64,000 bases of DNA from Candidatus Omnitrophota bacterium. GTDB lineage: Bacteria; Omnitrophota; Gorgyraeia; Gygaellales; Profunditerraquicolaceae. This document shows, piece by piece, positions 13,329 through 47,222 of the stretch (position 1 is the stretch's first letter; each line of letters begins with the position of its first letter). The stretch covers positions 243 to 64,242 of the forward strand of contig JAPLLX010000007.1 of assembly GCA_026387335.1 (NCBI GenBank). Reading direction: 5' to 3'. A model generated the notes under the pieces. The model was not told where the DNA came from. It saw only the letters and a program-made list of their open reading frames with translations, and did no database searches. Made by a program: the position numbers and the translations under genes.

Positions 13329-13333
13329 AAAAG

Positions 13334-17095: not shown

Positions 17096-17096
17096 A

Positions 17097-18928: not shown

Positions 18929-18940
18929 ACTGCCTATCTT

Positions 18941-21061: not shown

Positions 21062-21956
21062 CGCGATAAAAGGGCAGGATAAGCCGATAGGGATGCTTAA
21101 AACTTATATCGAGAATTCCTGCCTTGAGGGCGGGTATTTATTTGCCGGGCCTGAAGGGATAGGTAAGAAAATGACAGCCCTGGCTTTGGCCGAAGAACTA
21201 GTCGGAAGCAGCCAGCATCCGGATGTGCATGTGATTTCCAATGAAGATACGCAGATAAAGATAGATGTAATCCGCCAGCTGCAAAAAGATATAAACTTAA
21301 AAGCCTATGCAGGCCCTTATAAGGTTTTTATTATTGATAATGCCCATACCTTAACGCCTGAAGCGTCAAATTCTTTATTAAAGATATTGGAAGAGCCGCC
21401 TAAAAAAAGCCTGATTATCCTCATTAGCGACAAACCGAATCTGCTTTTTAAAACGGTTATCTCGCGCTGCAAGATTTTAAAATTCTTACCTCTTAAGAGA
21501 ACGGTGTTAGAGGATATTTTAAGAAAAGATTATAAATTAGATAACGCTTTAGCGCATTTCCTGGCATATTTCTCCGAAGGCAGGCTGGGGGGAGCGTTAA
21601 AATCAATGGACGAGGATATAATTAACAAAAAGAACAGCCTTATTGATAAATTTGTTCTAGCCGCTCGTCCGGCCCTGGATAGTTTCGCCGGGCAAAGCCG
21701 GCCGGAAGTGCGTAATGGTTTAAATTTACTGGTTACCTGGTTTCGGGATATTTATTTACTTAAGTCAGGCATGCCACTGGATGAGGCTATAAATTACGAC
21801 CGGGGGACAGAATTAACACAAGGCGCCCGCCGCCTTTCATTTTCGGATTTAGATATGATATTCGGGAATATAACAGCCGCGATAGCGTATCTAGAGATGA
21901 ATGTAAATACGAGATTATTAATATATAATCTGGGGATGGAGTTATGGAAGGTTTAA
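21051..21956 (+). CDS. holB: DNA polymerase III delta' subunit
   Basis: AAA+ clamp-loader-like (GPEGIGK). Position after tmk as in Firmicutes. Confidence 0.75.
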   Translation: MSFSAIKGQDKPIGMLKTYIENSCLEGGYLFAGPEGIGKKMTALALAEELVGSSQHPDVHVISNEDTQIKIDVIRQLQKDINLKAYAGPYKVFIIDNAHTLTPEASNSLLKILEEPPKKSLIILISDKPNLLFKTVISRCKILKFLPLKRTVLEDILRKDYKLDNALAHFLAYFSEGRLGGALKSMDEDIINKKNSLIDKFVLAARPALDSFAGQSRPEVRNGLNLLVTWFRDIYLLKSGMPLDEAINYDRGTELTQGARRLSFSDLDMIFGNITAAIAYLEMNVNTRLLIYNLGMELWKV

Positions 21957-22786
21957 TTTTTGTGCGCTTAAGGGATTCCGGCCAGGTCTATGCCTATAAT
22001 GCTTTAGGGTTTGCGGTTAAAGAGGGGGATTATGTAATAGTGGAGCATGACCGCGGCCAGGATTACGGCCAGGTAGTGCCGTCCTGCGATGCCAGTCATT
22101 GTAAAGTTAAGGATTCAGCTCCACAAGCAGCCGCGGGAAGCGCTGAAGCAGCTAAAGAGCAGCCTAAGAAAATATTACGCCTAGCCAGAGAAGCGGATAT
22201 AAAGCAGATCGAGGATAATCGGGTAAAAGCAAAAGAGGTGTTTAATTCTTGCGTTAAAAAAATAGAAGAGCATAAATTGGATATGAAACTGGTCCAGGCC
22301 GAGTATTCTTTTGACCGTTCAAAGATCGTATTTTATTTTACAGCTAACGGCAGAGTGGATTTCAGGAATTTAGTAAAGGACCTGGCCAAGATCTTTAAAG
22401 CCAGGATCGAATTGAGGCAGATAGGTGTGCGCGACGAAGCCCGGCTTTTCGGCGGATTTGGCCCCTGCGGAAGAGAGCTCTGCTGCGCGCGGTTCTTAAA
22501 AGATTTTGAACCGGTCACTATTAAGATGGCCAAGGAAGAGGGGCTTCCGTTAAATCCTCCCAAGATTTCAGGTATTTGCGGAAGGCTTATGTGCTGCCTT
22601 TCTTTTGAATATGAAAGTTATAAATTGCTCTCTAAGGGCCTTCCCCGCGAAGGAGAGCATGTGAATACCGCCCAGGGTAAAGGTAAGATCATGAGTGTAA
22701 ATGTATTTAAGCGTTCCGCTTCAGTGCAACTGGAAGACGGGACCTGGATAACGGTAAGTTATAGGGAAAAAGAGTATGGGAAATAA
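21944..22786 (+). CDS. ricT: PSP1-domain protein (RicT/YaaT-like)
   Basis: PSP1 C-terminal pattern with Cys cluster GPCGRELCCARFL...CGRLMCC. Confidence 0.75.
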   Translation: MEGLIFVRLRDSGQVYAYNALGFAVKEGDYVIVEHDRGQDYGQVVPSCDASHCKVKDSAPQAAAGSAEAAKEQPKKILRLAREADIKQIEDNRVKAKEVFNSCVKKIEEHKLDMKLVQAEYSFDRSKIVFYFTANGRVDFRNLVKDLAKIFKARIELRQIGVRDEARLFGGFGPCGRELCCARFLKDFEPVTIKMAKEEGLPLNPPKISGICGRLMCCLSFEYESYKLLSKGLPREGEHVNTAQGKGKIMSVNVFKRSASVQLEDGTWITVSYREKEYGK

Positions 22787-24278
22787 GTTTTATATAACTA
22801 CTCCTCTTTACTACGTAAACGCCTCTCCGCATATCGGCCACTCCTATACTACGATTGCCGCCGATACTCTCAGCCGCTATTTGCGTAAAGTAATAGGAGA
22901 GGATAAGGTTTGGTTTCTTACCGGTACTGATGAACACGGCCAGAAGATCCAGCGCGCCGCGGATGAAGCGAAACTAAACCCGCAGGATTTTGCGGATAAG
23001 ACGAGCTTGCAGTTTAAAAGCCTCTGGAAGGCGTTGGATATTTCCTATAACGATTTCATCCGTACTACTGAAGAGCGGCACATTAAAACCGTGCAAAAAG
23101 TTTTAGCTATCCTCTATAAGAAGGGGGATATTTATGAAGGAAAATACGTTGGCTTGTATTGCACACCCTGTGAAACCTTCTGGCTGGAATCGCAAGCTAT
23201 AGGGGGAGTATGTCCTGATTGTAAAAGGCCGGTAGATAAAATTACTGAGACAAATTATTTCTTTAAATTAACCAAATACCAGGACTGGCTGGTTAAATAT
23301 ATCGAGGCTCCGGCGAATAGTAAATTTATTTTACCGGCAATGAGACATAATGAAGTCTTAAGTTTCCTAAAATTAAATAAGTTGACCGACCTGTGTATCT
23401 CCCGGCCCAAGGAAAGATTAAACTGGGGTATCCCTTTGCCGTTTGCTCCCAGTCACGTTACTTATGTCTGGTTTGACGCGTTGATAAATTATATCAGCGC
23501 GGTCGGAGAGTTTGACGCTAAAGATAAGTATCATTCCAAATGGTGGCCGGCTGACCTGCATTTAATCGGTAAGGATATTTTAAGGCAACATGCGGTATAT
23601 TGGCCGATAATCCTGCAGGCTTTAGGGATAGAGCAGCCTAAGACAATATTCGCCCACGGCTGGTGGATGATCAATCAGGATAAGATGTCTAAATCCAAAG
23701 GCAACGTAATCAATCCGGTTGATATGGTAAATAAATTTGGCCTGGACGTTTACCGGTATTTTATATTACGCGATGTGCCTTTTGGTCTGGATGGAAATTT
23801 TTCGCCAGACGCGATTATTAAAAGATTTAATGGCGATTTAGCGAATGATTTAGGAAATTTAGTTTATCGCACGCTTACGATGGTTGAGAAATATTACGCG
23901 GGGAATATCCCTCCTTTGGATATCTACGGTCTTAAACTTAATGAGCGCGAGGAATTGATCAAGAAGTCTATCCAGGGCCTGCAGCAGGCAGTTTATGCGC
24001 CATTAAGTTCTGATTTTGATTTTAGTTTGGCCCTTGAGAAAATTTGGGAATTGATAAATATGGCGAATAAATACGTTGAAGAGACCAAGCCCTGGAATTT
24101 AGCAAAAGAAAAGAAGGACGCGGAGCTTAAAATATTTATCCGTCTCTTAGTGGAAGTAATCAGAAAAGTCAGCGTTGAGCTCGGCGCGTTTATGCCGCAG
24201 ACAGCCGCTTTGATCAATGAGCAGATCGGTAATGATTCAATCAAGAAAGGCGCTCCGTTATTCCCCCGCATATGTTAG
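22776..24278 (+). CDS. metG: Methionyl-tRNA synthetase (short form)
   Basis: HIGHSYT, zinc knuckle CTPCETF...CPDC, KMSKS. Confidence 0.95.
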   Translation: MGNKFYITTPLYYVNASPHIGHSYTTIAADTLSRYLRKVIGEDKVWFLTGTDEHGQKIQRAADEAKLNPQDFADKTSLQFKSLWKALDISYNDFIRTTEERHIKTVQKVLAILYKKGDIYEGKYVGLYCTPCETFWLESQAIGGVCPDCKRPVDKITETNYFFKLTKYQDWLVKYIEAPANSKFILPAMRHNEVLSFLKLNKLTDLCISRPKERLNWGIPLPFAPSHVTYVWFDALINYISAVGEFDAKDKYHSKWWPADLHLIGKDILRQHAVYWPIILQALGIEQPKTIFAHGWWMINQDKMSKSKGNVINPVDMVNKFGLDVYRYFILRDVPFGLDGNFSPDAIIKRFNGDLANDLGNLVYRTLTMVEKYYAGNIPPLDIYGLKLNEREELIKKSIQGLQQAVYAPLSSDFDFSLALEKIWELINMANKYVEETKPWNLAKEKKDAELKIFIRLLVEVIRKVSVELGAFMPQTAALINEQIGNDSIKKGAPLFPRIC

Positions 24279-34016: not shown

Positions 34017-35258
34017 GTGTTAAAAAAAAAGATAATAGTAGTCGGCGCAGGCCCAGCCGGAATGATGGCTGCGATAAAAGCGGGCTCACTAGCTCAAGAA
34101 GTAATCCTCGTTGATAAAAATCCATCCTTAGGCAAGAAACTCCTCCTTAGCGGTAAAGGCCGCTGTAATTTAACCAACGCCAGCGATCTAGACTCATTCT
34201 TAAAAAGATTCTCCAAAAACGGGGAATTCTTAAGGGATGCCTTTAAGAAATTCTTTAACCAGGAGCTGATGGATTTTTTCCAGGAGAGAGGGCTGCCCCT
34301 AAAAGTAGAGAGGCAGTTACGCGTTTTTCCGGTTACGGATAGTTCAAACAGCATCGTAAATACGCTGGAGAAAGAATTGCTTAAGCAGAATGTAAAGATC
34401 AAGCTTAATTCCAAAGCAACAGATGTGTTGGTAGAAAATAATCAGATCAAGGGGCTGTATTTAGAGGAGGAAGAGTTTATTCCTTGTGACAAAATAATTT
34501 TAGCCACCGGAGGCGTCTCTTATAGTTTTACCGGCTCAACCGGCGAGGGTTTGGAATTGGCCAAAAAAACAGGCCATAATATTGTAGCCTTACGGCCGGG
34601 CCTGGTCCCGTTAGTCGTGAGTGAAAAATATATTAAAACATTAGAAGGCCTGACCTTAAAAAACATCCGCCTTAAATTTGGCGCGGGCAGAAAGGAGATT
34701 ATCTCCGAGGTCGGGGAGTTGTTATTTACAAGTTTTGGGATATCCGGACCGTTAGTCCTTACTCTCAGCGCTAAGATAGCGAATTGGTTGGCTGACAAGA
34801 AGGAAGTCTTTGCCGATATAGATTTAAAACCGGGGTTAACGGTTGAGCAACTCTCTGCCCGTTTTTTGCGGGAATTTAAGACTAACGCCAAGAAGGGGAT
34901 TAAAAATGTTATGAAGAGTTTATTGCCTATAAAGTTGATTGATTTGTTTATGGAGTTGGCAAAAATAAATCCGCATAAAAAGGCCAATCAGGTTACGCAA
35001 AAGGAACGCGAGACGCTTGTCACTTTGCTTAAGGGCTGGCGTTTAAATATCTCCGGCACAAGGCCGATAGAAGAGGGGATGGTCACCCAGGGCGGAGTTT
35101 CTTTAAAAAACATCAACCCGCGTACTATGGAATCGCGGATAATTAAGGGGTTGTATTTTTGCGGAGAGATGATTGATGTGGACGCGGATACCGGAGGATT
35201 TAACCTTCAGGCGGCATTCTCTACCGGATACTTAGCAGGAGAAAGCGCGGCATTATGA
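34017..35258 (+). CDS. HI0933/BaiN-family NAD(P)/FAD-dependent oxidoreductase
   Basis: GAGPAGMMAA Rossmann motif and HI0933-like pattern. Confidence 0.75.
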   Translation: MLKKKIIVVGAGPAGMMAAIKAGSLAQEVILVDKNPSLGKKLLLSGKGRCNLTNASDLDSFLKRFSKNGEFLRDAFKKFFNQELMDFFQERGLPLKVERQLRVFPVTDSSNSIVNTLEKELLKQNVKIKLNSKATDVLVENNQIKGLYLEEEEFIPCDKIILATGGVSYSFTGSTGEGLELAKKTGHNIVALRPGLVPLVVSEKYIKTLEGLTLKNIRLKFGAGRKEIISEVGELLFTSFGISGPLVLTLSAKIANWLADKKEVFADIDLKPGLTVEQLSARFLREFKTNAKKGIKNVMKSLLPIKLIDLFMELAKINPHKKANQVTQKERETLVTLLKGWRLNISGTRPIEEGMVTQGGVSLKNINPRTMESRIIKGLYFCGEMIDVDADTGGFNLQAAFSTGYLAGESAAL

Positions 35259-36601
35259 AAAATATATATTTAGCTTCTCACTCTAAGGCTCGCCAAAAAT
35301 TATTAAAATCACTGGGCCTGAAATTTAAAGTCCTTCCCGCTAGAATTAAAGAGAGAAGGAGCGCAAAAGGGATATCCTATGCTGACCTTGTAAAGCTAAA
35401 CGCGCGCCAGAAAGCCGAAACTGCTTCCCGAAAAGTAAAGTCCGGGATTATTATTGCCGCGGATACGATTCTGGTCCAGGACGGCAAAATATATGGTAAG
35501 CCCAAAGACTTAAAAAGCGCCCGGCGCATGCTTAAAACAATATCCGCCAAACCGCAAACTGTCTATACCGGTATTGCCGTAATAAAAAAGGGAGAGGGCA
35601 GGGAAAAAATACTGCTGGATTACGAAAAGACCGATGTTTATATGGATAAGTTAAGCGATAAAGATATAGATGCTTATTTTAAGAAAGTTTCTCCTTTAGA
35701 TAAAGCCGGAAGTTTTGACATCCAGGCCAAAGGCGCTCTTTTTATCCGGGGGGTGAGGGGCTGTTTCTATAATGTGGTAGGTCTGCCTTTAAGAAAACTT
35801 TATACGATGTTTAAAAAACTGGATATAAGGTTATATTTGTTTTTTCTGGCTCTGGTTTTCTTAGCCGGTTGTTCTACGGAATATAATATCGTTACCGGAG
35901 AACAGGAGGTCTACTACTATAGCACGGATAAAGAAGTCCAGATGGGCCAGGCTGTTGCCCGGGAAGTGGCCAAGCAATATAAATACACCGATGACCCGCT
36001 GTTACAAAAGCGGGTTGAGGATATCGGTAAGAAAATAGTCGCGGTGAGCGATAGGAAAGAAATAGATTACCATTTTTTTGTATTAGACGAGGATGAGGTA
36101 AATGCCGTTTCCCTGCCCGGAGGTTATGTTTATATATTTAAGGGGTTAGTGGATAAAGTAGCTAACGATGATGAGCTGGCCGGAGTCATAGCCCACGAAG
36201 TCGGCCATATAGTCGCTCGCCACAGCATCAAGAAACTGCAGGCCCTTCAGGGTTATTCCATATTAAGAATACTTGTAGCGGCAGCCCCGTCTTCGGGCGA
36301 AGTAGGAAATGCCGCGGATGTCGCTTTTACCGAGCTGCTTCTAGGCTATTCCCGGGAAGATGAACTGCTGGCTGATCAGTTAGGCGCTCGGTACATAAAA
36401 TCAGCCGGGTATGACCCGCATGCTATGATTTCATTTTTACAGAAACTTCAGGAGGTCAATCGCCGAAGGCCTCTTCAGCCAAAATCATATTATAAAACTC
36501 ACCCCTATACTCCGGACAGGATCAGGGTAGTCAAGGAAGAATTGGGAGAGCGGATTGATTTTGACGATTACATTAATATTGAACAAAATAAACATAAGTA
36601 G
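35255..36601 (+). CDS. maf: In-frame fusion: Maf nucleotide pyrophosphatase (aa 1-184) + lipoprotein M48 Zn-peptidase (YcaL/LoiP-like, internal Met at nt 35807)
   Basis: Maf N-terminus LASHSKARQKLL. Then MFKKLDIRLYLFFLALVFLAGCS lipobox signal. Then HEVGH M48 motif. No stop between. Confidence 0.6.
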   Translation: MKNIYLASHSKARQKLLKSLGLKFKVLPARIKERRSAKGISYADLVKLNARQKAETASRKVKSGIIIAADTILVQDGKIYGKPKDLKSARRMLKTISAKPQTVYTGIAVIKKGEGREKILLDYEKTDVYMDKLSDKDIDAYFKKVSPLDKAGSFDIQAKGALFIRGVRGCFYNVVGLPLRKLYTMFKKLDIRLYLFFLALVFLAGCSTEYNIVTGEQEVYYYSTDKEVQMGQAVAREVAKQYKYTDDPLLQKRVEDIGKKIVAVSDRKEIDYHFFVLDEDEVNAVSLPGGYVYIFKGLVDKVANDDELAGVIAHEVGHIVARHSIKKLQALQGYSILRILVAAAPSSGEVGNAADVAFTELLLGYSREDELLADQLGARYIKSAGYDPHAMISFLQKLQEVNRRRPLQPKSYYKTHPYTPDRIRVVKEELGERIDFDDYINIEQNKHK

Positions 36602-36612: not shown

Positions 36613-37602
36613 ATGAATAATCCTTTCGGGGTATTGGAATTTTTGCACTGGAACCATCCCTGGAATAATTATAAGTATTCCAGCCCGGCGCACTGGCAAA
36701 AGGTAATAAAGCTGATGAAAGAAGCGGGAGTCGGCTGGGTGAGGATGGATTTCTTGTGGCAGGATATTGAACCCAAGGAAGGTAAGAGCGTATTTGATAA
36801 ATATGATCAGGTCGTAGATTTATTAAATAAGAATAAGATACATATTCTGGGTATTCTTAATTATGGCGTTGAATGGGCTGGGGACTCTAAAAAATGGAAC
36901 TGCCCGCCGAAAGATAACAATCTTTTTGTTAAATACGCTGTCAGGGTAATCCGGCGTTATAAGGATAAAATAAAACATTGGGAGGTTTGGAATGAGCCTG
37001 ACTCCGGAGTTTACTGGTCAGCTCAGGACGGATTAAAGAGCTATTGCGCTTTGCTCAAGTCTGTCTATATCGCCGCTAAAAAGGTTGATCCGGATTGTAA
37101 AATCTTAAACGGCGGTTTAGCCAACGGCTCAAACAGCATTAACAACCTTTATGCTAATGGCGCCAGGAAATATTTTGATATCCTGAACCTGCATTTTTTT
37201 GAAACTCCTTTGCATAAAGGGGGAATAAAGGGGGTAAGCGCTTATACAAAATTGGCCCGTAAGATAATGGTCCGCAACGGCGATGGAAATAAGAAGATAT
37301 GGCTTACTGAAACCGGCTGCCCCGGAGTTAAGCGGGGCCTGAAGACCGGTAATTGGTGGATAGGTAAGAACCCCAGTGAAAGAGAGCAGGCTTCCTGGGT
37401 CAGAAAAGTTTATACTGAATTGCTTAAGAATAAGAATGTAGAGAAGGTCTTTTGGGCATTTTTCCGCGATTGTTCAGGCCATTGGGATAATGGCGTGGAT
37501 TATTTTGGCCTGGTCCGTTGGGATTATTCCCGTAAACCCGCGTTTAAAGCCTATAAAGAATGTTTTAATAAATGGAAAAAAGGAAAAAATGCGAAAAATT
37601 AA
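36613..37602 (+). CDS. Clan GH-A glycoside hydrolase (GH5/GH39-like)
   Basis: WEVWNEPD (acid/base Glu) and IWLTETG (nucleophile Glu). Confidence 0.6.
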   Translation: MNNPFGVLEFLHWNHPWNNYKYSSPAHWQKVIKLMKEAGVGWVRMDFLWQDIEPKEGKSVFDKYDQVVDLLNKNKIHILGILNYGVEWAGDSKKWNCPPKDNNLFVKYAVRVIRRYKDKIKHWEVWNEPDSGVYWSAQDGLKSYCALLKSVYIAAKKVDPDCKILNGGLANGSNSINNLYANGARKYFDILNLHFFETPLHKGGIKGVSAYTKLARKIMVRNGDGNKKIWLTETGCPGVKRGLKTGNWWIGKNPSEREQASWVRKVYTELLKNKNVEKVFWAFFRDCSGHWDNGVDYFGLVRWDYSRKPAFKAYKECFNKWKKGKNAKN

Positions 37603-39166
37603 AGAATTCATCCGCGCCTGCGAAGAGAGCCGCTTAGGTTTTGGTTTATGGATAACATCAGCTTTGTTTATAATCCTTATTCGCGATTCCATTGAGAGCC
37701 TGGTCAGCACGAATTCCTTCCCGCCGCTAAATGCCTTCCATTTTCTGCATGTCCCGGTATTCTTTCTAACGGCGCTTTTGTCAATAATTATCCTGCTGCG
37801 TTTGTTCACCAAAGAAGATATTCTAAAAGTCTCAAAAATATGCCTTTTCTTTTTTGCGGTGATAATCTTTCCGGCTGGCCTGGATTTAATAGTCTCTTTA
37901 ATAACTAAGACCAATATATCGTACGGTTATATTGACCAGAATGTTATAAGGTCAGTTACGAATTTCTTTAATCCGATTTATAAGATTCCCGCTGTTCCCT
38001 ACAGCCTGCGCCTGGAAATCTTATTTATTTGTATTTTCTCTTTTCTATATATACAGATCAAGACTAATAAAATATTTCTTTCTATCCTGGGGGCATTCTT
38101 AGTTTTTTGTTTGTGCACTCTTTACGGAGCCTTACCCGGATTATTGGTAAGCGCTTTCGTAAAGGTAATCGCTTTCCTGTTTCACATTTTTCATCCTTTG
38201 TTCTTTGGAAAGGAAGTCAGGGGTGTGGTGGATGAAAATATTATAGTCATAGTCGAACTGATTTTGGCTTCTTTAGCAGCCGGGTTATGGTTTTGGCTTT
38301 ATGACCCCAAAAAATTCCAGGTTGTCCTGAAAGATTTCAGGTTCAACCGCTACTTTTGCTGCTTTATATTACTGACAATAGGCGTGGGATTGTATCTATA
38401 CTCAGCTAAAGGCTTAGATGTCTTTATCGGGCTTAAGATTTTAGCCATGTTCTTAGCTTTATTCTTCGCTGTGCGTTTTTCGGCGCTGCTCAACGATATA
38501 TTTGACGTAGATTGCGACAGGGTCTCCAATAAGGAGAGGCCGTTAGTAAGCGGAATAATCAGCGCCGGCGAATATCTAAAGGTCGGTTTAGTTTATTTAA
38601 CTTTTTCTTTATTTTTTAGCATCTGGGTAAGTCAGAATTGCTTTGTGCTTAATCTGCTTTTTATAGGAGTATATTTCTTATATTCTGTCCCGCCTTTTAG
38701 GCTCAAGCGTTTTTTTGTCTTCTCTTCTTTGATTACCGGGCTACAGGCATTATTGATCCTGTTAATGGGTCAGGTCTCATTAGCCAAGGATGATACCACT
38801 GTATTATTGTATCCGCCTTTATTATGGTTGGCCTTCCTGATTTTCTTCTTAGGTTCCAATATAAAAGACTTAAAAGATATAGAAGGGGATAGGCTTTGCG
38901 GAGTTTATTCTCTGCCGGTTATCTTCGGAGAGAGGAAAGCCAGGAAAATAATAGGCTTTTTGGTATTTTTAAGCTATCTTTTGTTCCCGGTATTCCTGGC
39001 GGATGTCATCTGGGATATTAAAATAACCGCGCTCTCTTTAATTTTCGCTTTCTTGAGCTATTTTTATATCCGTAAGCCGGATTCAAATGAGCGGATAATA
39101 TTTCTACTCTATTTTCTCTATGTATTTATCGCCGCCTGCTTTTTTATTTTTCCTATTGGAGGATAA
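37589..39166 (+). CDS. UbiA-family prenyltransferase with ~280-aa N-terminal polytopic extension (start at MRKIKEF; listed ORF start 37490 overlaps GH gene)
   Basis: NDIFDVDCDRVSNKERPLVSG (NDxxDxxxD...R) and DIEGDR second Asp-rich motif, more than 14 TM helices. Confidence 0.6.
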   Translation: MRKIKEFIRACEESRLGFGLWITSALFIILIRDSIESLVSTNSFPPLNAFHFLHVPVFFLTALLSIIILLRLFTKEDILKVSKICLFFFAVIIFPAGLDLIVSLITKTNISYGYIDQNVIRSVTNFFNPIYKIPAVPYSLRLEILFICIFSFLYIQIKTNKIFLSILGAFLVFCLCTLYGALPGLLVSAFVKVIAFLFHIFHPLFFGKEVRGVVDENIIVIVELILASLAAGLWFWLYDPKKFQVVLKDFRFNRYFCCFILLTIGVGLYLYSAKGLDVFIGLKILAMFLALFFAVRFSALLNDIFDVDCDRVSNKERPLVSGIISAGEYLKVGLVYLTFSLFFSIWVSQNCFVLNLLFIGVYFLYSVPPFRLKRFFVFSSLITGLQALLILLMGQVSLAKDDTTVLLYPPLLWLAFLIFFLGSNIKDLKDIEGDRLCGVYSLPVIFGERKARKIIGFLVFLSYLLFPVFLADVIWDIKITALSLIFAFLSYFYIRKPDSNERIIFLLYFLYVFIAACFFIFPIGG

Positions 39167-39169: not shown

Positions 39170-40120
39170 ATGCTTAAGCCGATAATTAACTGGCTGGTAT
39201 TTGATGTTCTTAAAATGCGGCAAGGGTCTTTGTTTTCCGAAGCCCTGAACTTTTTCCTCTATGACACGATTAAGATATTCTTTTTGTTGACCGGCATTAT
39301 CTTTGTTGTCGCCATCATCAGGACGTTTTTCTCGCCAGAGAAAACCCGGGCGATTTTAAGCAAAAGCCAAGGCTATTGGGGCAACGTGTTGGCGGCGCTT
39401 TTAGGAATCGTGACGCCTTTTTGCTCGTGTAGCGCAGTCCCCTTATTCTTGGGTTTTTTAGAGGCAGGGGTTTCATTGGGAGTAACGTTTTCTTTTTTAG
39501 TGGCTTCGCCTATGATTAATGAAGTGGCGCTGGTTATGCTATGGGGGCTTTTTGGTTGGAAAATATCCTTTATCTATATCGGTAGCGGGCTGGCTATAGC
39601 TATTTTTTCAGGAATAGTCATCGGTAAACTTAAAGTTGAAGGATTAGTTGAACAACTCGCTCATGTCAAGCAGGGGTGCTGTGCTCAATCAATCAGTATG
39701 GCGTTTAAAGATAGGATTGCTTACGCTAAGGAATATACGGGGAATATTTTGAAGAGTATATGGCTGTTTGTAATTATTGGCATTGGTTTGGGGGCGTGGA
39801 TTCATGGATATGTGCCGGCAGATTTTCTGGCGAGGTATGCAGGCAGGGAAAATTGGTTTGCCGTGCCTTTGGCGACGCTTATCGGCATTCCTCTTTATTC
39901 TAACGCAGCCGGGGTTATCCCTCTGGTCAGCGCATTAACCGAAAAAGGCGTAGCTATGGGAACGGCGCTTTCTTTTATGATGGCAGTAACTGCGCTTTCG
40001 CTGCCAGAATTTATAATACTGCGAAAAGCTATGAAATTGAAGTTGCTTGTAATTTTTGCTTCGGTCGTGGGTATAGGAATTATATTTACGGGATATATGT
40101 TTAATTTTATTCTCAAATAA
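39170..40120 (+). CDS. arsP: DUF318/ArsP-like permease (organoarsenical efflux family)
   Basis: TPFCSCSAVP motif characteristic of ArsP/DUF318. Adjacent ACR3. Confidence 0.6.
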   Translation: MLKPIINWLVFDVLKMRQGSLFSEALNFFLYDTIKIFFLLTGIIFVVAIIRTFFSPEKTRAILSKSQGYWGNVLAALLGIVTPFCSCSAVPLFLGFLEAGVSLGVTFSFLVASPMINEVALVMLWGLFGWKISFIYIGSGLAIAIFSGIVIGKLKVEGLVEQLAHVKQGCCAQSISMAFKDRIAYAKEYTGNILKSIWLFVIIGIGLGAWIHGYVPADFLARYAGRENWFAVPLATLIGIPLYSNAAGVIPLVSALTEKGVAMGTALSFMMAVTALSLPEFIILRKAMKLKLLVIFASVVGIGIIFTGYMFNFILK

Positions 40121-40142
40121 AAAAGTATAAGGAGAGATAGCG

Positions 40143-41186
40143 ATGGCGGAATGTAACGTGAAACAGTTATCTTTTTTAGACAGGTTTCTGACGCTCTGGA
40201 TATTCCTGGCGATGGCCTTGGGAGTTCTGCTTGGCTATTTATACCCGCCGATAGTCAGTTTTTGGAATAGATTTCAGGTAGGAACGACCAATATCCCTAT
40301 TGCCGTAGGCCTTATTTTAATGATGTATCCGCCGCTGGCCAAGGTTAAATACGAAGAAATGGGGGATGTCTTCCGCAATACCAAAATACTAACGCTTTCA
40401 CTTATTCAAAACTGGATAATCGGGCCTGTCCTGATGTTTATTCTGGCCGTGGTATTTTTGAGGGGGTATCCTGAATACATGGCAGGCTTGATTATGATCG
40501 GCCTGGCGCGTTGTATCGCTATGGTCATTGTGTGGAATGAACTGGCCAAAGGTGACACTGAATATTGCGCTGGTCTGGTGGCTTTTAATTCCGTGTTTCA
40601 GGTGCTTTTTTATTCCGTATATGCCTGGATTTTTATTACAGTATTACCGAGCTGGCTGGGACTTAAAGGGTCAATAGTGCGGGTTACTATCGGACAGATC
40701 GCCTGGAGTGTTTTTATTTATCTGGGGATACCGTTTCTGGCCGGGATTATCAGCCGTTTCAGCTTGATTAAACTTAAAGGCCAAGATTGGTATGAACAGA
40801 AGTTTATTCCCCGGATCAGCCCCTTGACGCTTATCGCGCTTCTTTTTACCATAGTGGTTATGTTTTCTTTGAAAGGCGAATATATCGTCAAGATTCCGCT
40901 GGATGTGGTGCGTATAGCGATTCCGCTGGTCATCTATTTCATAGTTATGTTTTTGGTCTCTTTTTATATGGGCAAGAAAGCAGGAGCGGATTATTCCAAG
41001 ACAGCCACGCTTTCTTTTACCGCAGCCAGTAATAATTTTGAGTTAGCGATTGCGGTGGCAGTCGCTGTTTTCGGGATTAATTCCGGCGCTGCGTTTGCCG
41101 CGGTGATAGGGCCGTTAGTAGAAGTTCCTGTCCTGATAAGCCTGGTGAATGTCGCGCTCTACTTTAAAAAGAGGCATTTCGCATGA
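40143..41186 (+). CDS. acr3: Arsenite efflux transporter ACR3
   Basis: N-terminus [23 protein letters not shown] and ACR3 topology. Confidence 0.85.
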
Positions 41187-41203: not shown

Positions 41204-41231
41204 TTGACAAATATAGAAAGAATGGTATATT
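41204..41231 (+). promoter_or_regulatory. Consensus sigma70-like promoter TTGACA-N16-TATATT heading a ~310-nt leader
   Basis: Direct reading. Near-identical to promoter at 62024..62051. Confidence 0.45.
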
Positions 41232-41456
41232 TAATCCAATAAGGCACAAAGAAGTGTCAAAGATAATACAAAGGCGTTCTTTAATGGGAGCGTCTTTTTG
41301 TTTTATATACACGCTTAATCCTCTTTAATGTTAATTAAATAGAATTAAAGGGGAGCGGGGGAACCAAGTTTTTGGGGCGAATATCTAGAGTTCTAGATTA
41401 GGGATTCTCAATCCGAGCCCGGCAGCTAACCTCGTCAGCATATTTTTGAGGAATGT

Positions 41457-41486: not shown

Positions 41487-41543
41487 TTCAGAAGGAAATA
41501 CACCCGCCACTCCGATATGGCGGGGTGTAATCAGGGGGCTTAT

Positions 41544-44500
41544 ATGAAAATATCAGAATTAGTTTCTAAGGACTCGGTCAATATTAATTTAAAATCCCGG
41601 ACTAAAAAAGCGGCTATAGCTGAAATTATTGACCAGCTATATAAAACCCGCAAGATCAAGAATAAAGAAGAAGTCTTAAAAGCCATCTTAAAAAGAGAAA
41701 GCGAGAATTCTACCGGTATAGGGCATGGCCTTGCTATACCGCATGCCAGGATTGAGAATTTAAGAGAGGCAATGGTTTTTATAGGCATTTCCAAACATGG
41801 CATAGATTTTTCTTCCTTGGATGCGAAGCCAGTGTATATAGTTGTGCTTTTCCTTACTCCACTTTTCGATACCGCTACTCATCTAAAGATTCTATCCAGG
41901 CTTGGCGTAATGTTTAACGATGGGCTGCTCTTGGGAGAACTGAGGAGCGCTTCATCCAGCAATGAACTATACTTTATTCTTAAACAGGGAGATCTTGAAA
42001 GAGATGATTTTCGCGCCTTAAATAAAGAAGAGATATTTCTTGAATTAGAAACCAGCGCTGATGGGCTTACTGAGACAGAAGCAAAAAGTCGCTTAGGAGA
42101 ATATGGTTCCAATAGGTTAAAAAGAATAAAAAAGACTCCCCTTCTAGTGCGTTTTGTCTCTCATTTTACGAATCTTCTCGCTATTTTAATGTGGCTTGGT
42201 AGCGGTTTATCTTTTTGGGCTCAGATGCCGGAAGCCGGATGGGCATGCATAGCGGTAATTTTTATTAATGCGATTTTTAGCTTTTGGCAGGAATTTAAAG
42301 CAGAAAAAGCGATAGAGGCATTAAAGGGACTGCTACCTTCATATGCTCGTGTAATCAGGGGAGGGGAAGAGAAGAAGGTGCTTTTAAGCGACCTGGTGCC
42401 GGGAGATATTATATTTATTGAAGAAGGGGATAGTATTCCAGCAGATGCCAGGATTATCGAGGCTCAGGAGTTAAGAGTTAACAATAGCGCATTTTCCGGA
42501 GAATCTAAGCTTTCGCATAAAATAGCCGAAGGATTTGAAACAAAAGGTGATTTTCTATGGTTAGAAATACCAAATCTTGTATTTGCAGGTACTAGCGTTG
42601 CCTCAGGTATGGGTAAAGCCGTAGTCATTGCTACCGGCATGGGCACAGAAATAGGCAAGATCGCCTATTTGACCCAAACCATTAAAGAAGAATTGAGCCC
42701 TTTGCAGAGAGAGGTAAATCGTATTAGTAAATTGATTGCCGCAATTTCGGTTATTATGGGTTTCGCCTTCTTTTTTGTAGGCTTAGCATTTACTAAGATG
42801 ACCCTTATCGCTTCAACAATGTTTGCCATAGGAATTATCTTAGCCAATGTTCCGCAAGGATTGATGCCTACGCTTACTTTGGCGCTTTCCATGGCTGTGC
42901 AGAGGATGGCAAGGAAACATGCGCTTATTAAGAAGCTTTCTTCAGTAGAAACTCTAGGTTGCACTAGCGTCATCTGTACCGATAAAACAGGTACGCTTAC
43001 TACTAATCAGATGAGTGTCAGGAAAATCTGGATTAATCAGAAGGTGATTGAGATTTCCGGGACCGGTTATGAACCAGTCGGTTCATTTAATTTTGAAGGA
43101 AAAGAGCTTCCTCCAGATTCATTTACAGAGGATAATCTTGAGCTTCTATTGAGGATAGGAAGTTTATGTAATACGGCAAAGTTAGTTGTGCCTTCAGAAT
43201 CTCAAAACTATTGGAGTATTATTGGGGATCCTACAGAAGGGGCTTTATTGACCTTAGCCCAGAAAGCAGGCTTCAATAGTGAGCAAGAACGCAAGGCGCA
43301 TATTCTAGAAAAACGTTTTCCTTTTGATTCGGTCCGTAAAAGAATGAGTTGTATAAATAAGCTCGCTAACGGGGAGTTAAATATCTTTGTTAAAGGAGCG
43401 CCTAAAGAACTCCTGGATCTTTCTACCAAAATAATTCTTGGTCATAAGATTGTTGAATTAACAGCCGAGATAAGGACAGAAATTATTTCCAGAATAAATA
43501 ATTTTGCAGAAGATGGCCTGCGCGTTCTCGGATTTGCTTATCGTAAATTTGAGGGCGAGAATGTTGCAGAGGTTACCGTTCAAACAGTAGAAAATGATTT
43601 AATCTTTATCGGAATAACGGCTATGTATGATCCTCCTCGCCCGGAAGTTAAAGATGCTGTTGCTATTTGCAAAAGAGCGGGCATACGGGTAGTTATGATT
43701 ACAGGCGATTATCAAGTCACAGCTTTGTCCATTGCTAAACAGGTTGGTATTGTTAACTCTGAAGATGCAATTGTTATTACCGGAGCGGAGTTTTCTGATA
43801 TAGATGACGATCAGCTAAAAGAAAGGTTACTTAAGCAAGAGGTTGTATTTGCTCGAGTCAATCCCGAACATAAATTGAGAGTTGTGAATATATTCAAAGA
43901 TTTGGGTAATATCGTAGCTGTTACCGGAGACGGAGTTAACGATGCCCCGGCACTTAAGCGAGCAGATATCGGAGTAGCTATGGGTTTACGCGGGACAGAC
44001 GTGGCTAAAGAATCGGCAGAAATGATACTAACTGACGACAATTTTGCCAGCATTGTTTCGGCTATTGAGGAAGGCCGTGCCGTATTTGACAATATCAAGA
44101 AATTCATTACTTATATTTTTGCGCATCTTGTCCCTGAGGCAATACCGTATATTTTCTATGCCTTGCTTAAAATCCCTGTACCTATTACGGTAATGCAAAT
44201 ATTGGCAATTGATTTGGGTACAGAAACTATTCCCGCGCTTGCATTAGGCGTTGAAAAGCCTGAGCCGGGTATTATGGAACTTGCGCCAAGGCCGAGAAAA
44301 AAGGGGGTTATTGATAAGATAGTGCTTTTCCGCGGTTACATAGTCTTGGGGCTACTTAATACAGCCGCGGTGTTAAGCGCTTATTATTTTGTTCTTTTTC
44401 AAGGAGGATGGAAGCCGGGAATGCAGCTTGAGCCTAATGACACGACATTTACAAATCCTCTGCATCTTAAGGCGATGACTATTGTTTTTGTCGGTATAGT

Positions 44501-44765
44501 GGTTATGCAAATTGCCAACATTTTTGCCTGCCGTAGCGAAAAATACTCAGCATTTAAATTAGGTTTCTTCAATAACAAGCTTATTCTTTGGGGAATTCTC
44601 TTTGAGCTTGTTTTTGCTTCCGTAATAATATATACGCCCTTTGCTCAAAAGATATTTAATACGATTGGCTTGGGATGGCAGGATTGGGGGATATTGTTTG
44701 CATTTATGATTGTTGTATTCTTCCTAGAAGAATTACGAAAAAAGATGTCTGTATTAAAAAGGTAG
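41544..44765 (+). CDS. P-type cation-transporting ATPase (type II, Ca2+/Mg2+-like) with N-terminal PTS-EIIA(Ntr)-like domain
   Basis: EIIA-2 motif GHGLAIPHAR, Cation_ATPase_N, DKTGTLT, MITGD, GDGVNDAPAL. SD cagggggc before ATG 41544 (listed ORF start 41517 lies in a hairpin). Confidence 0.85.
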   Translation: MKISELVSKDSVNINLKSRTKKAAIAEIIDQLYKTRKIKNKEEVLKAILKRESENSTGIGHGLAIPHARIENLREAMVFIGISKHGIDFSSLDAKPVYIVVLFLTPLFDTATHLKILSRLGVMFNDGLLLGELRSASSSNELYFILKQGDLERDDFRALNKEEIFLELETSADGLTETEAKSRLGEYGSNRLKRIKKTPLLVRFVSHFTNLLAILMWLGSGLSFWAQMPEAGWACIAVIFINAIFSFWQEFKAEKAIEALKGLLPSYARVIRGGEEKKVLLSDLVPGDIIFIEEGDSIPADARIIEAQELRVNNSAFSGESKLSHKIAEGFETKGDFLWLEIPNLVFAGTSVASGMGKAVVIATGMGTEIGKIAYLTQTIKEELSPLQREVNRISKLIAAISVIMGFAFFFVGLAFTKMTLIASTMFAIGIILANVPQGLMPTLTLALSMAVQRMARKHALIKKLSSVETLGCTSVICTDKTGTLTTNQMSVRKIWINQKVIEISGTGYEPVGSFNFEGKELPPDSFTEDNLELLLRIGSLCNTAKLVVPSESQNYWSIIGDPTEGALLTLAQKAGFNSEQERKAHILEKRFPFDSVRKRMSCINKLANGELNIFVKGAPKELLDLSTKIILGHKIVELTAEIRTEIISRINNFAEDGLRVLGFAYRKFEGENVAEVTVQTVENDLIFIGITAMYDPPRPEVKDAVAICKRAGIRVVMITGDYQVTALSIAKQVGIVNSEDAIVITGAEFSDIDDDQLKERLLKQEVVFARVNPEHKLRVVNIFKDLGNIVAVTGDGVNDAPALKRADIGVAMGLRGTDVAKESAEMILTDDNFASIVSAIEEGRAVFDNIKKFITYIFAHLVPEAIPYIFYALLKIPVPITVMQILAIDLGTETIPALALGVEKPEPGIMELAPRPRKKGVIDKIVLFRGYIVLGLLNTAAVLSAYYFVLFQGGWKPGMQLEPNDTTFTNPLHLKAMTIVFVGIVVMQIANIFACRSEKYSAFKLGFFNNKLILWGILFELVFASVIIYTPFAQKIFNTIGLGWQDWGILFAFMIVVFFLEELRKKMSVLKR

Positions 44766-44796
44766 AATTGATGCGATGATAAAAAGGAGGGGAAAG

Positions 44797-45162
44797 ATGA
44801 AAAAGACTATTTATGTTTTGTTCGTGTTTGGCTTTGTTTGTTCTCTCTCTCTCGTTAAATCGACTCTAGCGGTCGTGCCTGCCCCGATTTCCCCGCAAGA
44901 CTTGGGAATTGTGACTGTTACCGGGAAAATCGAATCCATATCCAAGGAATGTTCTTCAGAAGGGGTGATGGCAGCGATCACTATTGTTGATAAGATTGGG
45001 AAAAGGGTGGTCGTAGAAGTCAAGGCGGATACGGTGATTTATGACGAAGGCGGGAAAACTATCGCTTTGGATAAGGTTCAAAAAGGCGATAAAGTCATCA
45101 TTGAATACCGAGAAGCGAGAAAGACGGTAGAGAAAGCAGAATCCATCAAATTGACAAGATAG
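44797..45162 (+). CDS. Hypothetical secreted protein
   Basis: Signal peptide MKKTIYVLFVFGFVCSLSLV. SD aaaaggagg. Confidence 0.4.
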   Translation: MKKTIYVLFVFGFVCSLSLVKSTLAVVPAPISPQDLGIVTVTGKIESISKECSSEGVMAAITIVDKIGKRVVVEVKADTVIYDEGGKTIALDKVQKGDKVIIEYREARKTVEKAESIKLTR

Positions 45163-45383: not shown

Positions 45384-46340
45384 ATGCCTTTAGAGCACTT
45401 TAAGATTACCGGGATTGCTGTATCCCAGATCTTCCTTCTGGCGGCCATGGGCTTTTTTTTGGTTAAAAGGAAGTTTCTGGAGGGCGCGGGGCTGGATGCT
45501 GTCAGTAATTTGGTTTTGGACGTTACCCTGCCGGTGCTTATTTTCTGCCAACTAATCAAGGATTTCTCTTTTCAGGCGTATCCGGACTGGTGGATTTTTC
45601 CCTTACTGAGTATTGGCGTTACGGTCATAGGTTTGGTTGTTGGGTTCTTGCTCCTGCCTTTGATAAAAGGAGAGCAGCATAAATTACAATTTTTAAGCCT
45701 GGTCGGGTTTCAGAATTCCGGATATTTACCTTTGGCGCTGGCAGCGGCTTTGCTTGCGCAAGGGGAATTAAACGCGATGTTTATCTATCTGTTTTTATTT
45801 CTCTGCGGGTTTAACCTGGTGATGTTTTCCGTCGGTGTGTACATATTGAATTTCCATAAAGAGAGAAAATTCGATTGGCAAAACTTTTTGAGTATGCCGG
45901 TTACGGTCACCTTATTTAGCCTGTTAATTATATTTTTTGGTTTAAATAAATTTGTTCCGGATGCCGTTATTAAGCCGTTAAGGATGCTGGGGGATAGCAC
46001 TCTGCCTTTAGCTATGCTGGTAGTGGGAGGAAACCTGGCTGAATTAAATCTTAAGAATATTAATAAGAGAGCGATTTCGCTGTTGATATTGGCAAAAATG
46101 ATTATTCTGCCTGCTATAGGCTTAGGCCTGATTATTGTTTTGGGCATCCCGAAGCTGATAGGTTTACTGATTCTTATCCAGCTGGCTATGCCATCGGCAG
46201 TGACTTTATCGGTAATCTTAAGAAACTATAAAAAAGAGGACCTTTTGGTGAGCCAGGGCATACTCCTTACGCATTTAGCCAGCGTAATCACTATACCCCT
46301 ATTTTTGATTTTATATTTTAGCCGGATTATGCTAAAATGA
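45384..46340 (+). CDS. AEC-family (auxin efflux carrier-like) transporter
   Basis: 10-TM AEC-like profile. Confidence 0.65.
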   Translation: MPLEHFKITGIAVSQIFLLAAMGFFLVKRKFLEGAGLDAVSNLVLDVTLPVLIFCQLIKDFSFQAYPDWWIFPLLSIGVTVIGLVVGFLLLPLIKGEQHKLQFLSLVGFQNSGYLPLALAAALLAQGELNAMFIYLFLFLCGFNLVMFSVGVYILNFHKERKFDWQNFLSMPVTVTLFSLLIIFFGLNKFVPDAVIKPLRMLGDSTLPLAMLVVGGNLAELNLKNINKRAISLLILAKMIILPAIGLGLIIVLGIPKLIGLLILIQLAMPSAVTLSVILRNYKKEDLLVSQGILLTHLASVITIPLFLILYFSRIMLK

Positions 46341-46792
46341 GTAAAATTATCGCTTCTAATCATAAGGGTTACCGGGATTACGCGGTTATCGAATCTTTAG
46401 AGTGCGGTATAGAGCTAAAAGGAAGCGAAGTAAAATCCATCCGCCAGGGTTATATCAACTTGAATGATAGTTTTGCCCGCGTTGAAGAAGGCGAATTGAT
46501 TTTATATAACACGCATATAAATCCTTATACTGAAGCAAGTTATATGAATGTTGAGCCGACAAGAAAACGGCGGCTGCTTCTGCATAAGAACCAAATAGAT
46601 AAAATAGAGGGTAAGCTGACCCAAAAAGGGCTTACCTTGATTCCCTTAAAGGTATATTTTAATGCCAGAGGGTTTGTGAAACTGGAACTCGCTCTGTGTA
46701 AAGGAAAAAAACTCTACGACAAAAGAGATGATATCAAGCGCCGCGAATCGGATCTAACGCTGCGCAGGATCTTGAAAAACAGAAGGAAATAG
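46337..46792 (+). CDS. smpB: SsrA-binding protein
   Basis: SmpB pattern IASNHKGYRDYAVIE...GSEVKSIR. Confidence 0.9.
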   Translation: MSKIIASNHKGYRDYAVIESLECGIELKGSEVKSIRQGYINLNDSFARVEEGELILYNTHINPYTEASYMNVEPTRKRRLLLHKNQIDKIEGKLTQKGLTLIPLKVYFNARGFVKLELALCKGKKLYDKRDDIKRRESDLTLRRILKNRRK

Positions 46793-47222
46793 GGGGTGAA
46801 TTGGGCTCGACTTAGGCCGTCGGGTAAGAGCAGCATGTCGCGGACGCATGGTTAGCCGCGTTAATAACCCGTGCACAATATAAACGCAAGAACAGTATCA
46901 AGTTCTATAGCAAACGAGAGATATAGTGTTGTTCCGCAAATCGGAATGCCTATGTCTTTTCCTGCTATGGCGTTAAAAGCCATTCCTTAATAAAATAAGG
47001 AATGCCTCAATCTGATCTGCCTAAGGGTTGGAATTGAGCGCTAATTTAGGCTGGTCTTCTGCTAGTTGCCTTGCGGCAGGGGATAAGAGCGGTAAAAGGC
47101 TGCGCTTTGCAAATCCTGCCCCGCAGGAGTTGCAAGAGCAAGTTTAAAATGCGGGGCTAAACATGTAGCGGCTTTTATTCGTTTGTTTAAGGACGCCGGT
47201 TCGATTCCGGCCACCTCCACCA
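46792..47222 (+). ncRNA. ssrA: tmRNA (SsrA)
   Basis: 5' GGGGGUGAAUUGGGCUCGAC. 3' GGACGCCGGUUCGAUUCCGGCCACCUCCACCA with G3:U pair. Resume region UAUAGCAAACGAG resembles E. coli UAGUCGCAAACGAC. Tag frame 46910..46987 then UAA UAA. Confidence 0.85.

Follow-up and report, generated by a model that had tools for sequence, protein, structure and literature searches.

The stretch of DNA analysed here (the window) comprises 64,000 nt of a Candidatus Omnitrophota bacterium (GCA_026387335.1, contig JAPLLX010000007.1, positions 243-64,242 of the forward strand), and is the part of the genome that was visible to the analysis. At positions 41544-44765 it encodes a protein of 1073 amino acids (aa) in which a type-2 enzyme IIA (EIIA) domain of the phosphotransferase system (PTS) is fused to a complete type II P-type ATPase, an architecture confirmed by a set of motifs far beyond chance. 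The gene is preceded by a leader that holds a cyclic di-AMP (c-di-AMP) riboswitch. The features of the locus are listed below, numbered from the first nucleotide of the window. Clades A, B and C are the groups of fused homologues described further on, the protein itself belonging to clade A, and TM stands for transmembrane segment.

41204..41231, plus strand: candidate sigma-70 promoter (TTGACA, 16-nt spacer with TG, TATATT), a consensus match only
41302..41455, plus strand: c-di-AMP riboswitch aptamer (RF00379, ydaO/yuaA leader), 88 nt before the start codon
41457..41488, plus strand: intrinsic-terminator-like hairpin (AACCAGAGAA/TTCTCTGGTT) followed by a T-run, the presumed expression platform of the riboswitch
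41503..41524, plus strand: stable GC-rich hairpin, CCCGCCAC-loop-GGCGGG, 8 pairs, between the terminator and the ribosome-binding site
41544..44765, plus strand: coding sequence of the EIIA-P-type ATPase fusion, 1073 aa, stop codon TAG ending at 44765
41559..41987, plus strand: PTS_EIIA_2 domain (PtsN-like EIIA type 2), aa 6-148, Pfam PF00359
41694..41696, plus strand: codon of Arg51, invariant in clades A and B
41742..41744, plus strand: codon of His67, the predicted phospho-acceptor, in GHGLAIPHAR (aa 60-69)
41880..41882, plus strand: codon of His113, invariant in clades A and B
42015..42212, plus strand: Cation_ATPase_N, aa 158-223, Pfam PF00690
42492..42506, plus strand: dephosphorylation loop FSGES of the actuator domain (SGES for the canonical TGES), Ser318 invariant in 56 of 56 sequences
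42846..42872, plus strand: TM4 motif NVPQGLMPT, with Gln438 at the PEGL glutamate, equivalent to E327
42981..43001, plus strand: catalytic phosphorylation motif DKTGTLT (Asp480), aa 480-486
44112..44138, plus strand: TM5 motif YIFAHLVPE (His861, Leu862, Glu865), aligned with YTLTSNIPE of Na,K-ATPase, invariant in 56 of 56 sequences
44205..44225, plus strand: TM6 motif AIDLGTE (Asp890, Glu894), aligned with IDLGTD of Na,K-ATPase, invariant
44508..44543, plus strand: TM8 segment QIANIFACRSEK (Gln989, Asn992), aligned with QWADLIICKTRR, invariant

The longest reading frame of the fusion gene opens at an in-frame ATG at 41517. The start was placed at the ATG at 41544 because the homologues all begin with MKI[SA][DE]L; this codon has GGGGG 7 nt upstream. 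The product is 100% identical to an NCBI protein from a metagenome-assembled genome, named 'HAD-IC family P-type ATPase [Candidatus Omnitrophica bacterium]'. The N-terminal EIIA-2 fold with the GHGLAIPHAR motif, which the original prediction had read from the DNA, was recovered by Pfam as PTS_EIIA_2 at aa 6-148 (108.3 bits against a gathering threshold of 27, E=4e-31, profile positions 2-143 of 144). It is followed by Cation_ATPase_N, E1-E2_ATPase (aa 263-458), Hydrolase (476-808), Cation_ATPase (541-630) and Cation_ATPase_C (878-1067). The linker between the EIIA domain and Cation_ATPase_N (aa 149-157) has a mean identity of only 33% in the clade A alignment, which is consistent with a flexible tether to the N-terminus of the actuator domain.

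A protein search of a 5.8-billion-protein database gave 120 best clusters with 68-100% identity to the fusion. PF00359 and the ATPase domains occur together in 119 of them; the sole exception, P0105, is an N-terminally truncated gene call that begins within the EIIA domain. Because this architecture is identical in 119 of the 120 best clusters, the fusion is not an artefact of assembly or gene calling. The source names, where given, are Omnitrophota/Omnitrophica and Phycisphaerae, and the functional labels conflict with one another (Ca2+, Mg2+, K/Na efflux, 'fructose PTS IIA'). One genome per GTDB species was also scanned with a family-specific N-terminal alignment as query, and the 80 best loci were retained. 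Twenty-one of these align from residue 1 and hence include the EIIA domain; they span at least 6 lineages and come from Phycisphaerae, Omnitrophota, other Planctomycetota including anammox Brocadiaceae, Fibrobacterota, Chitinispirillaceae, Syntrophaceae, Deltaproteobacteria and Spirochaetia. A further Omnitrophota locus, L021, is interrupted by the end of its contig. The remaining loci align only from about residue 123-174, that is, as pump cores without EIIA, and belong to Actinomycetota, Chloroflexota, Gloeobacterales, Bacillota and archaea. The architecture had been predicted to be uncommon; it is uncharacterised but abundant, and occurs in several phyla. A rough neighbour-joining tree of the cores places clades A and B in one monophyletic group and clade C in another, so that one or two fusion events are possible.

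An anammox-like contig (L086, 5894-9944, protein P0207) carries the membrane domain of a KimA-type K+ importer in frame with an EIIA-ATPase. The KimA homology is genuine (PDB 6S3K, E=1e-48). The ATPase of this locus has lost about 75 residues of the actuator domain and is split into two open reading frames (ORFs), and given this disruption the triple fusion was set aside as a rearranged pseudogene or a misassembly.

The c-di-AMP riboswitch, which the original prediction had missed, is the strongest functional clue at the locus. The gap upstream of the pump gene measures 358 nt and holds the promoter, the aptamer, the terminator hairpin and the further GC-rich hairpin. The candidate promoter matches the consensus at 11 of 12 positions, has an extended -10 TG, and lies 18 nt past the stop codon of an ACR3-like gene. 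The true transcription start is uncertain because a weak terminator-like stem with a T-run (41270-41297) intervenes between this promoter and the aptamer. The aptamer matches RF00379 over model positions 1-134 of 134 (83.6 bits against a gathering threshold of 38, E=5.6e-18). It is followed by the terminator, a 10-bp stem and then TTTTATTT, whose hairpin appears in both the minimum free energy and the centroid folds; the GC-rich hairpin at 41503-41524 spans the unused in-frame ATG at 41517.

In all 8 other clade A loci a homologous aptamer (72-94 bits) immediately precedes the orthologous gene, so that the riboswitch is conserved in 9 of 9. All nine leaders also have a hairpin and a T-run after the aptamer, with two kinds of stem (ACCAGAG/CTCTGGT and CTGCC/GGCAG), the sequence of which differs between sub-lineages of the clade. 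No riboswitch was found upstream of the pump in 6 clade B and 8 clade C loci, and a custom covariance model placed an aptamer upstream of the pump in 0 of 58 loci of unfused relatives. The single match at an unfused locus (L028, 1008-1142, minus strand, on an Anaerolineales contig) lies on the opposite strand and points away from the pump. Conservation of the riboswitch is thus specific to clade A, in which Gln438 is also found. The validated riboswitches of this class turn transcription OFF and control K+ importers, among them the P-type pump KdpFABC, and these importers are induced when c-di-AMP falls under K+ limitation (PMC6488665). An aptamer separate from the terminator, as found here, is a described OFF design (PMC9337991). 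A different riboswitch, of the thiamine pyrophosphate class, occurs in a related locus upstream of a Thi4-family gene (L001, 4727-4838, plus strand).

The EIIA domain has the features expected of a working active site. All 56 clade A sequences and all 18 sequences in the wider alignment of the fused family have His67, which is retained in every fused protein examined, including divergent clade C domains in which Pro66 or Arg51 is changed. Arg51, Glu52, Thr57, Ala64-Ile65-Pro66-His67, Arg69 and His113-Leu114-Lys115 are invariant in the alignment of fused proteins, which reaches down to 48% identity. Within clade A, Arg51, Glu52, Pro66, His67, Arg69, His113 and Lys115 are each invariant in all 56 sequences, for which the mean identity is 54% over the EIIA domain and 72% over the whole protein. 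Because the catalytic residues are invariant while the domain drifts, the EIIA domain is judged to be a working active site and not a relic; the pattern indicates purifying selection on a functional site. A sequence search of the PDB with the EIIA domain returned four matches, all of them PtsN/EIIA(Ntr) proteins: 1A6J (E=3.5e-18), 2A0J, 4GQX and 3URR. His67 aligns with the AIPH motif of Escherichia coli PtsN, in which the phospho-histidine His73 lies. The AlphaFold2 confidence (predicted local distance difference test, pLDDT) is about 80-90 across aa 10-140.

An exhaustive search of 1.84 billion cluster representatives with the EIIA domain only yielded 12,303 matches. Other fused pumps (P0141, P0146) ranked highest, followed by many proteins of 600-900 aa and then by free proteins of about 150 aa. 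Seven of the longer proteins were checked. Six (P0125, P0130, P0138, P0174, P0204 and P0213, loci L087-L090) are Na+/H+ exchangers (PF00999) whose C-terminus carries one EIIA-2 domain or two, with the histidine conserved, and the seventh, P0124, consists of tandem EIIA domains only. The exchanger-EIIA proteins form a sizeable, uncharacterised family, and no c-di-AMP riboswitch was found at three of their loci. By analogy, they would be the in-cis counterpart of the control of the E. coli K+/H+ antiporter YcgO by PtsN. These fusions, together with the action of PtsN on K+ transporters in trans, support the earlier view of the EIIA domain as a regulatory domain. The nearest free-standing relative with a usable gene context is P0145 (42% identical, L085), encoded on an Elusimicrobiota contig between an hpf-like gene and hprK, which is a classic regulatory-PTS context.

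The pump core satisfies the general HAD-IC P-type model TIGR01494 (291 bits against a cutoff of 62.3). The motifs DKTGTLT, TGDY (aa 720-723) and GDGVNDAPAL (aa 795-804), named in the original prediction, are all present; since KGAP and DPPR are present as well, the enzyme looks catalytically intact. The prediction had proposed a comparison with MgtA and Ca-ATPases, and the core resolves instead as closest in sequence to the alpha subunits of Na,K- and H,K-ATPases. The best NCBIfam model is TIGR01106 (type IIC Na,K/H,K alpha; 611 bits, below the subfamily cutoff of 946). The models for divalent-cation pumps also stay below their cutoffs: SERCA, TIGR01116, 570 against 703 bits; PMR1, TIGR01522, 608 against 798; PMCA, TIGR01517, 415 against 507; and MgtA, TIGR01524, 379 against 611. 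The best PDB match over the pump is 8D3U (519 bits), followed by Listeria LMCA1, SERCA and SPCA.

The ion site was compared by alignment to Na,K-ATPase alpha3, with Na,K-ATPase numbering for the aligned positions. Only three members of the canonical set (E327, S775, N776, E779, D804, D808, Q923, D926) are retained, namely E779 as Glu865, D804 as Asp890 and Q923 as Gln989. The other five are changed: E327 to Gln438, S775 to His861, N776 to Leu862, D808 to Glu894 and D926 to Asn992. Position 438 is Gln in 53 and Glu in 3 of the 56 clade A sequences. The position of His861 corresponds to that of Lys791 in the gastric H,K-ATPase, a residue known as the 'built-in cation', and Asn992 replaces the aspartate of Na+ site III. 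Clade B shares His, Leu and Glu with clade A but keeps the PEGL glutamate. Because the canonical Na,K-ATPase set (E327, S775, N776, E779, D804, D808, Q923) is intact in clade C and in the unfused relatives except for D926N, the ancestral state of the family appears to be a K+-countertransporting pump lacking Na+ site III; site I appears to have been remodelled in addition in clades A and B.

Taken together, the locus is interpreted as a doubly regulated ion-pump unit, in which a monovalent-cation pump, most likely for K+ uptake, is repressed by c-di-AMP and gated by its EIIA domain, a reading to which we assign roughly even probability. Its predicted elements are the OFF logic of the leader, phosphotransfer to His67, the direction of EIIA control and the transported ion. 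High c-di-AMP, the signal of K+-replete and osmotically relaxed cells, would cause premature termination in the leader, which would confine synthesis of the pump to low c-di-AMP, under K+ limitation or osmotic stress. The PtsN-like EIIA would act as a built-in regulatory (R) domain, tethered through the linker of about 9 residues to the N-terminus of the actuator domain. His67 would be reversibly phosphorylated by a phosphocarrier of the HPr/NPr type encoded elsewhere, and its state would set the docking of the EIIA domain on the cytoplasmic headpiece, so restraining or releasing the E1-E2 cycle. Such docking would reproduce in cis the binding of free PtsN to KdpD, TrkA and YcgO. Free PtsN regulates K+ transporters in trans (PMC11808508, PMC6488665), and its unphosphorylated form binds and inhibits the CPA1 K+/H+ antiporter YcgO (PMC11808508). 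LacS, a non-PTS transporter with a fused EIIA domain that is controlled by phosphorylated HPr (HPr~P), sets a precedent (PMC10710835). The ion would be K+, taken up in exchange for H+ or Na+. Uptake of K+ is favoured because the riboswitch logic and the known roles of PtsN both concern K+, because the core resembles Na,K/H,K-ATPases, and because the aspartate of Na+ site III has been lost; the stoichiometry is probably reduced because of S775H and N776L in site I, His861 at the Lys791 position, and the change of the site III Asp to Asn.

A number of points weigh against this interpretation. To our knowledge, neither Gln at the PEGL glutamate nor Leu at N776 has a characterised precedent, and the assignment of K+ draws on regulatory logic and residue analogy. 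Ligand binding and the OFF direction of the predicted riboswitch are assumed from its family. The EIIA domain misses the cutoffs for PtsN equivalogs (TIGR01419, 76.4 against 138.7 bits; PRK10896, 76.7 against 221) and also the NCBIfam cutoff for FruA-IIA, because of which it is named PtsN-like and not PtsN. The closest free-standing relatives likewise fail the PtsN cutoffs, and the models may be biased towards Proteobacteria. Free PtsN is a protein of about 160 aa encoded in an rpoN-hpf-ptsN-hprK/rapZ-ptsO cluster. The term 'Ntr-like' of the original prediction therefore stands as far as the PDB matches, which are to PtsN only, and fails for PtsN proper, both by the cutoffs and by the lack of an rpoN/hprK/ptsO cluster. 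In a deltaproteobacterial sub-clade (L023, L024, L066) the EIIA domain, in the N-terminal 150 aa, is strongly degenerate: its phmmer E against the query domain is 1e-4 to 1e-6, and it has lost Arg51 and Pro66 but keeps the His and the second His motif; phosphotransfer may accordingly not be universal in the family, and this domain may have become independent of a phosphorelay. Confidence in the full-length AlphaFold2 model is poor (pLDDT 66, predicted template modelling score 0.42), so that docking of the EIIA domain onto the pump is unsupported by it. Among the conserved neighbours in clades A, B and C there is neither a K+-transport gene nor an operon partner. The coupling to PTS(Ntr) phosphorylation put forward in the original prediction is unsupported by gene content: genes for HPr/NPr, enzyme I (EI) or HprK were found neither in the window nor within 10 kb of about 25 fused relatives. 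The HprK of L085 was tried as a probe for a PTS in Omnitrophota and was rejected as uninformative, its matches being to Endomicrobia/Elusimicrobiota.

The missing linkage of a phosphodonor gene to any of the fused loci leads to another reading, which we rate as improbable: the EIIA domain may be regulatory but stand outside a phosphorelay, as a constitutive autoinhibitory, dimerisation or ligand-sensing module in which His67 has a structural or binding role. Terminal autoinhibitory domains independent of phosphorelay are common in P-type ATPases (PMCA, plant ACA, the R-domain of P3A pumps). The missed PtsN and FruA cutoffs agree with such a role, as do those clade C domains in which the active-site Arg and Pro are gone but the fold and the His are kept. 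Three points speak against it: Arg51, Pro66-His67, Arg69 and His113 are invariant in clades A and B although the domain has otherwise drifted to about 50% identity, as expected of a working phosphotransfer site; E. coli PtsN depends on its phospho-state for binding to a transporter target (PMC11808508); and EI/HPr chains without PTS transporters are reported in Planctomycetes and relatives (PMC2405797). The same two regulatory levels could also serve a different ion. Export of Na+ (or H+) under salt or osmotic stress by an ENA-like extruder, with or without K+ counter-transport, is in our estimate unlikely. Low c-di-AMP is also a mark of salt or hyperosmotic stress, and riboswitches for c-di-AMP and for Na+ are found together on osmotic-stress genes (PMC9337991). 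This EIIA subtype is fused to Na+/H+ exchangers as well, a pyrophosphatase lies near the pump in 8 of about 86 loci, an Mrp/Mbh-like cluster adjoins it in L003, and several homologues have been named 'potassium/sodium efflux P-type ATPase' by the Joint Genome Institute (JGI), although these automated names are inconsistent and include Ca2+, Mg2+ and 'fructose PTS IIA'. Export of Na+ fits poorly with the ion site, in which the Na+-specific D926 of site III is Asn throughout the family and two carboxylates or amides of the Na+/K+ sites are altered (E327Q, N776L), and with the characterised transporter targets of the riboswitch class, which are importers needed at low K+ (PMC6488665).

A divalent-cation pump for Ca2+, Mg2+ or Mn2+ is considered very improbable. 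The scores of the PMR1 (608 bits) and SERCA (570 bits) models come near that of the type IIC model (611 bits), Listeria LMCA1 is a near-top PDB match, and automated names such as 'P-type Ca2+ transporter type 2C' and 'magnesium-transporting ATPase' point the same way. The PMR1, SERCA, PMCA and MgtA models all remain under cutoff, however, with MgtA far lower (379 against 610 bits), and the Ca2+-ligand positions, E309, N768 and E908 in SERCA numbering, are occupied by Gln438, Leu862 and Asn992 or Gln989. A c-di-AMP riboswitch, moreover, has no known link to the transport of Ca2+ or Mg2+ (PMC7266159). The disrupted, rearranged gene of the related contig L086 could suggest that the fusion joins two merged genes by artefact or is a decaying, functionless relic. 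This explanation is effectively refuted already by the uninterrupted frame in more than 119 independent database clusters and 21 reference genomes, by the invariant catalytic residues of both halves, and by the dedicated riboswitch conserved upstream.

Within the preferred interpretation of a c-di-AMP-repressed, EIIA-gated pump, a more specific proposal is made tentatively, as a possibility that we hold to be on the doubtful side. Clade A may represent an unrecognised high-affinity K+ pump of Omnitrophota and Phycisphaerae, a single-subunit P2-type enzyme similar to H,K-ATPase with a one-site pocket, which would replace or complement Kdp and integrate c-di-AMP with the PTS(Ntr). His861 would then play the role of the gastric Lys791, and the protein would be a natural chimera of PtsN and its target, in which the mechanism of PtsN on transporters could be made structurally visible.

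The individual ingredients of the system are known: there are P-type pumps with terminal regulatory domains, EIIA occurs on a non-PTS transporter, and a P-type K+ pump is controlled by a c-di-AMP riboswitch. Literature searches found no paper describing the EIIA-P-type ATPase fusion, its remodelled ion site or the combination as a whole in these host phyla. The PtsN/EIIA(Ntr) proteins of Proteobacteria (1A6J, 2A0J, 3URR, 4GQX) share with the fusion PF00359, the phospho-His motif and the second signature His, and also the theme of K+-transport control through KdpD, TrkA and YcgO (PMC6488665, PMC11808508); PtsN is free-standing, whereas the EIIA domain here is covalently attached to its presumed target. 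The alpha subunits of Na,K- and H,K-ATPases (P-type IIC) resemble the fusion in domain order, in the equivalents of E779, D804 and Q923, and in the IDLGT motif. The fusion differs from them in the SGES loop, the five ion-site changes, the prokaryotic host and the additional N-terminal EIIA. No sign of a beta subunit was found at the fusion locus or related loci. The ORF downstream of the fusion (128 aa, secreted-type) has no Pfam match, and no conserved partner gene was detected. The kdpFABC operon of the Bacillus cereus group likewise has a ydaO-class aptamer and an intrinsic terminator before a P-type cation pump (PMC6488665). That pump is a P1A KdpB/KdpA complex of Firmicutes, while the one described here is a single-subunit P2-type enzyme of Omnitrophota and Planctomycetota with an EIIA module. 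LacS of Streptococcus thermophilus is similar in having EIIA fused to a non-PTS transporter, and HPr~P-dependent phosphorylation of its EIIA domain modulates transport (PMC10710835); its EIIA domain is Glc-type and C-terminal and its transport of sugar is secondary, in contrast to the N-terminal type-2/Ntr domain on a primary ion pump. Outside the ATPases, the EIIA domain is most closely related to that of the Na+/H+ exchanger (PF00999)-EIIA-2 proteins (about 27-35% identity, E down to 1e-38). Like the pump fusion they are monovalent-cation transporters that keep the phospho-His; unlike it they are secondary antiporters, with an EIIA domain that is C-terminal and often duplicated.

The locus joins PtsN-type EIIA, c-di-AMP riboswitches and Na,K/H,K-type P2 pumps in one unit, in phyla unstudied for each of them. 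If the interpretation is true, the prokaryotic relatives of the animal sodium pump, so far uncharacterised, gain a physiological role, and the circuits of c-di-AMP and PTS(Ntr), usually treated for different phyla, can converge on a single target. The covalent pair of regulator and target would be suited to cryo-electron microscopy and biochemistry of the phospho-control of a transporter by EIIA(Ntr). The family would also provide a natural series of ion sites, from canonical Na,K-ATPase-like through H/L/E to Q/H/L/E, for the evolution of selectivity and stoichiometry in P2 pumps. The inconsistent names of hundreds of proteins (Ca2+, Mg2+, K/Na efflux, 'fructose PTS IIA') are corrected.

Partners of phosphotransfer were sought with six-frame motif, phmmer and hidden Markov model searches for HPr/NPr, EI, HprK, RpoN and additional EIIA, in the window and in 1.4 Mb of related loci. 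The sole match across the related loci was the hprK beside the free EIIA gene of L085. No RpoN gene was found in the window or in the flanks of the fused relatives, and no diadenylate cyclase or KdpB motif in the window or the clade A flanks. A regulatory EI/HPr chain without PTS transporters has been reported from Planctomycetes, Chlamydiales, Chlorobia and Leptospira (PMC2405797); a literature search on the PTS in Omnitrophota returned nothing.

The pump gene is not part of a functional operon. Among the related loci of clades A, B and C, the conserved neighbours are all housekeeping genes or without relation to the pump (YidC, MnmE, DnaK, RlmH, RecG, GT2, TrpD, cbb3 oxidase and CheR/histidine kinase genes). 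The only recurrent neighbour is a membrane H+/Na+ pyrophosphatase, which is present within 10 kb in 8 of about 86 loci, more often than we should expect of a typically single-copy gene:

Clade A: L003 7459-9741; L010 7102-9402; L006 764-3100; L021 4535-6796
Brocadiaceae: L017 5202-7700; L086 956-3388
Unfused loci: L034; L040

As a clue to the ion, the pyrophosphatase was rejected as uninformative, since both K+-dependent (GNTTAA) and K+-independent (GNTTKA) types occur. In L003, a metagenomic contig of 714 kb, an Mrp/Mbh-like cluster (13323-23125) lies on the side of the pump opposite the pyrophosphatase; it contains three Proton_antipo_M genes, subunits similar to NiFe-hydrogenase and complex I, and HycI.

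In the window itself, an ArsP_1-type permease and an SBF/ACR3-type carrier are encoded back to back directly upstream of the leader (39170-41186). They resemble an efflux pair for arsenic or organoarsenicals, and no link to the pump was seen. A small ORF of 128 aa (44776-45162) begins 11 nt past the stop codon of the pump gene and has a second ATG at 44797, preceded by AAAGGAGGGG. Its product, with an N-terminus resembling a signal peptide, matches no Pfam family, and all related loci lack a counterpart; the protein may be an accessory subunit specific to this lineage, or may have nothing to do with the pump. Farther upstream, a 448-aa ORF (35255-36601) combines a Maf-like nucleotide pyrophosphatase (aa 3-188) with Peptidase_M48 (aa 249-429), an unusual fusion. 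A membrane protein of 558 aa (37490-39166) has a UbiA prenyltransferase domain only at aa 294-536, behind a long hydrophobic N-terminal extension with no Pfam match. Further downstream of the pump are genes for an AEC-family transporter, smpB (46337-46792) and, immediately after it, a full-length transfer-messenger RNA (tmRNA; 46792-47222, RF00023, 154 bits). The smpB-tmRNA genes are an ordinary trans-translation pair and confirm that the window is part of a bacterial chromosome.

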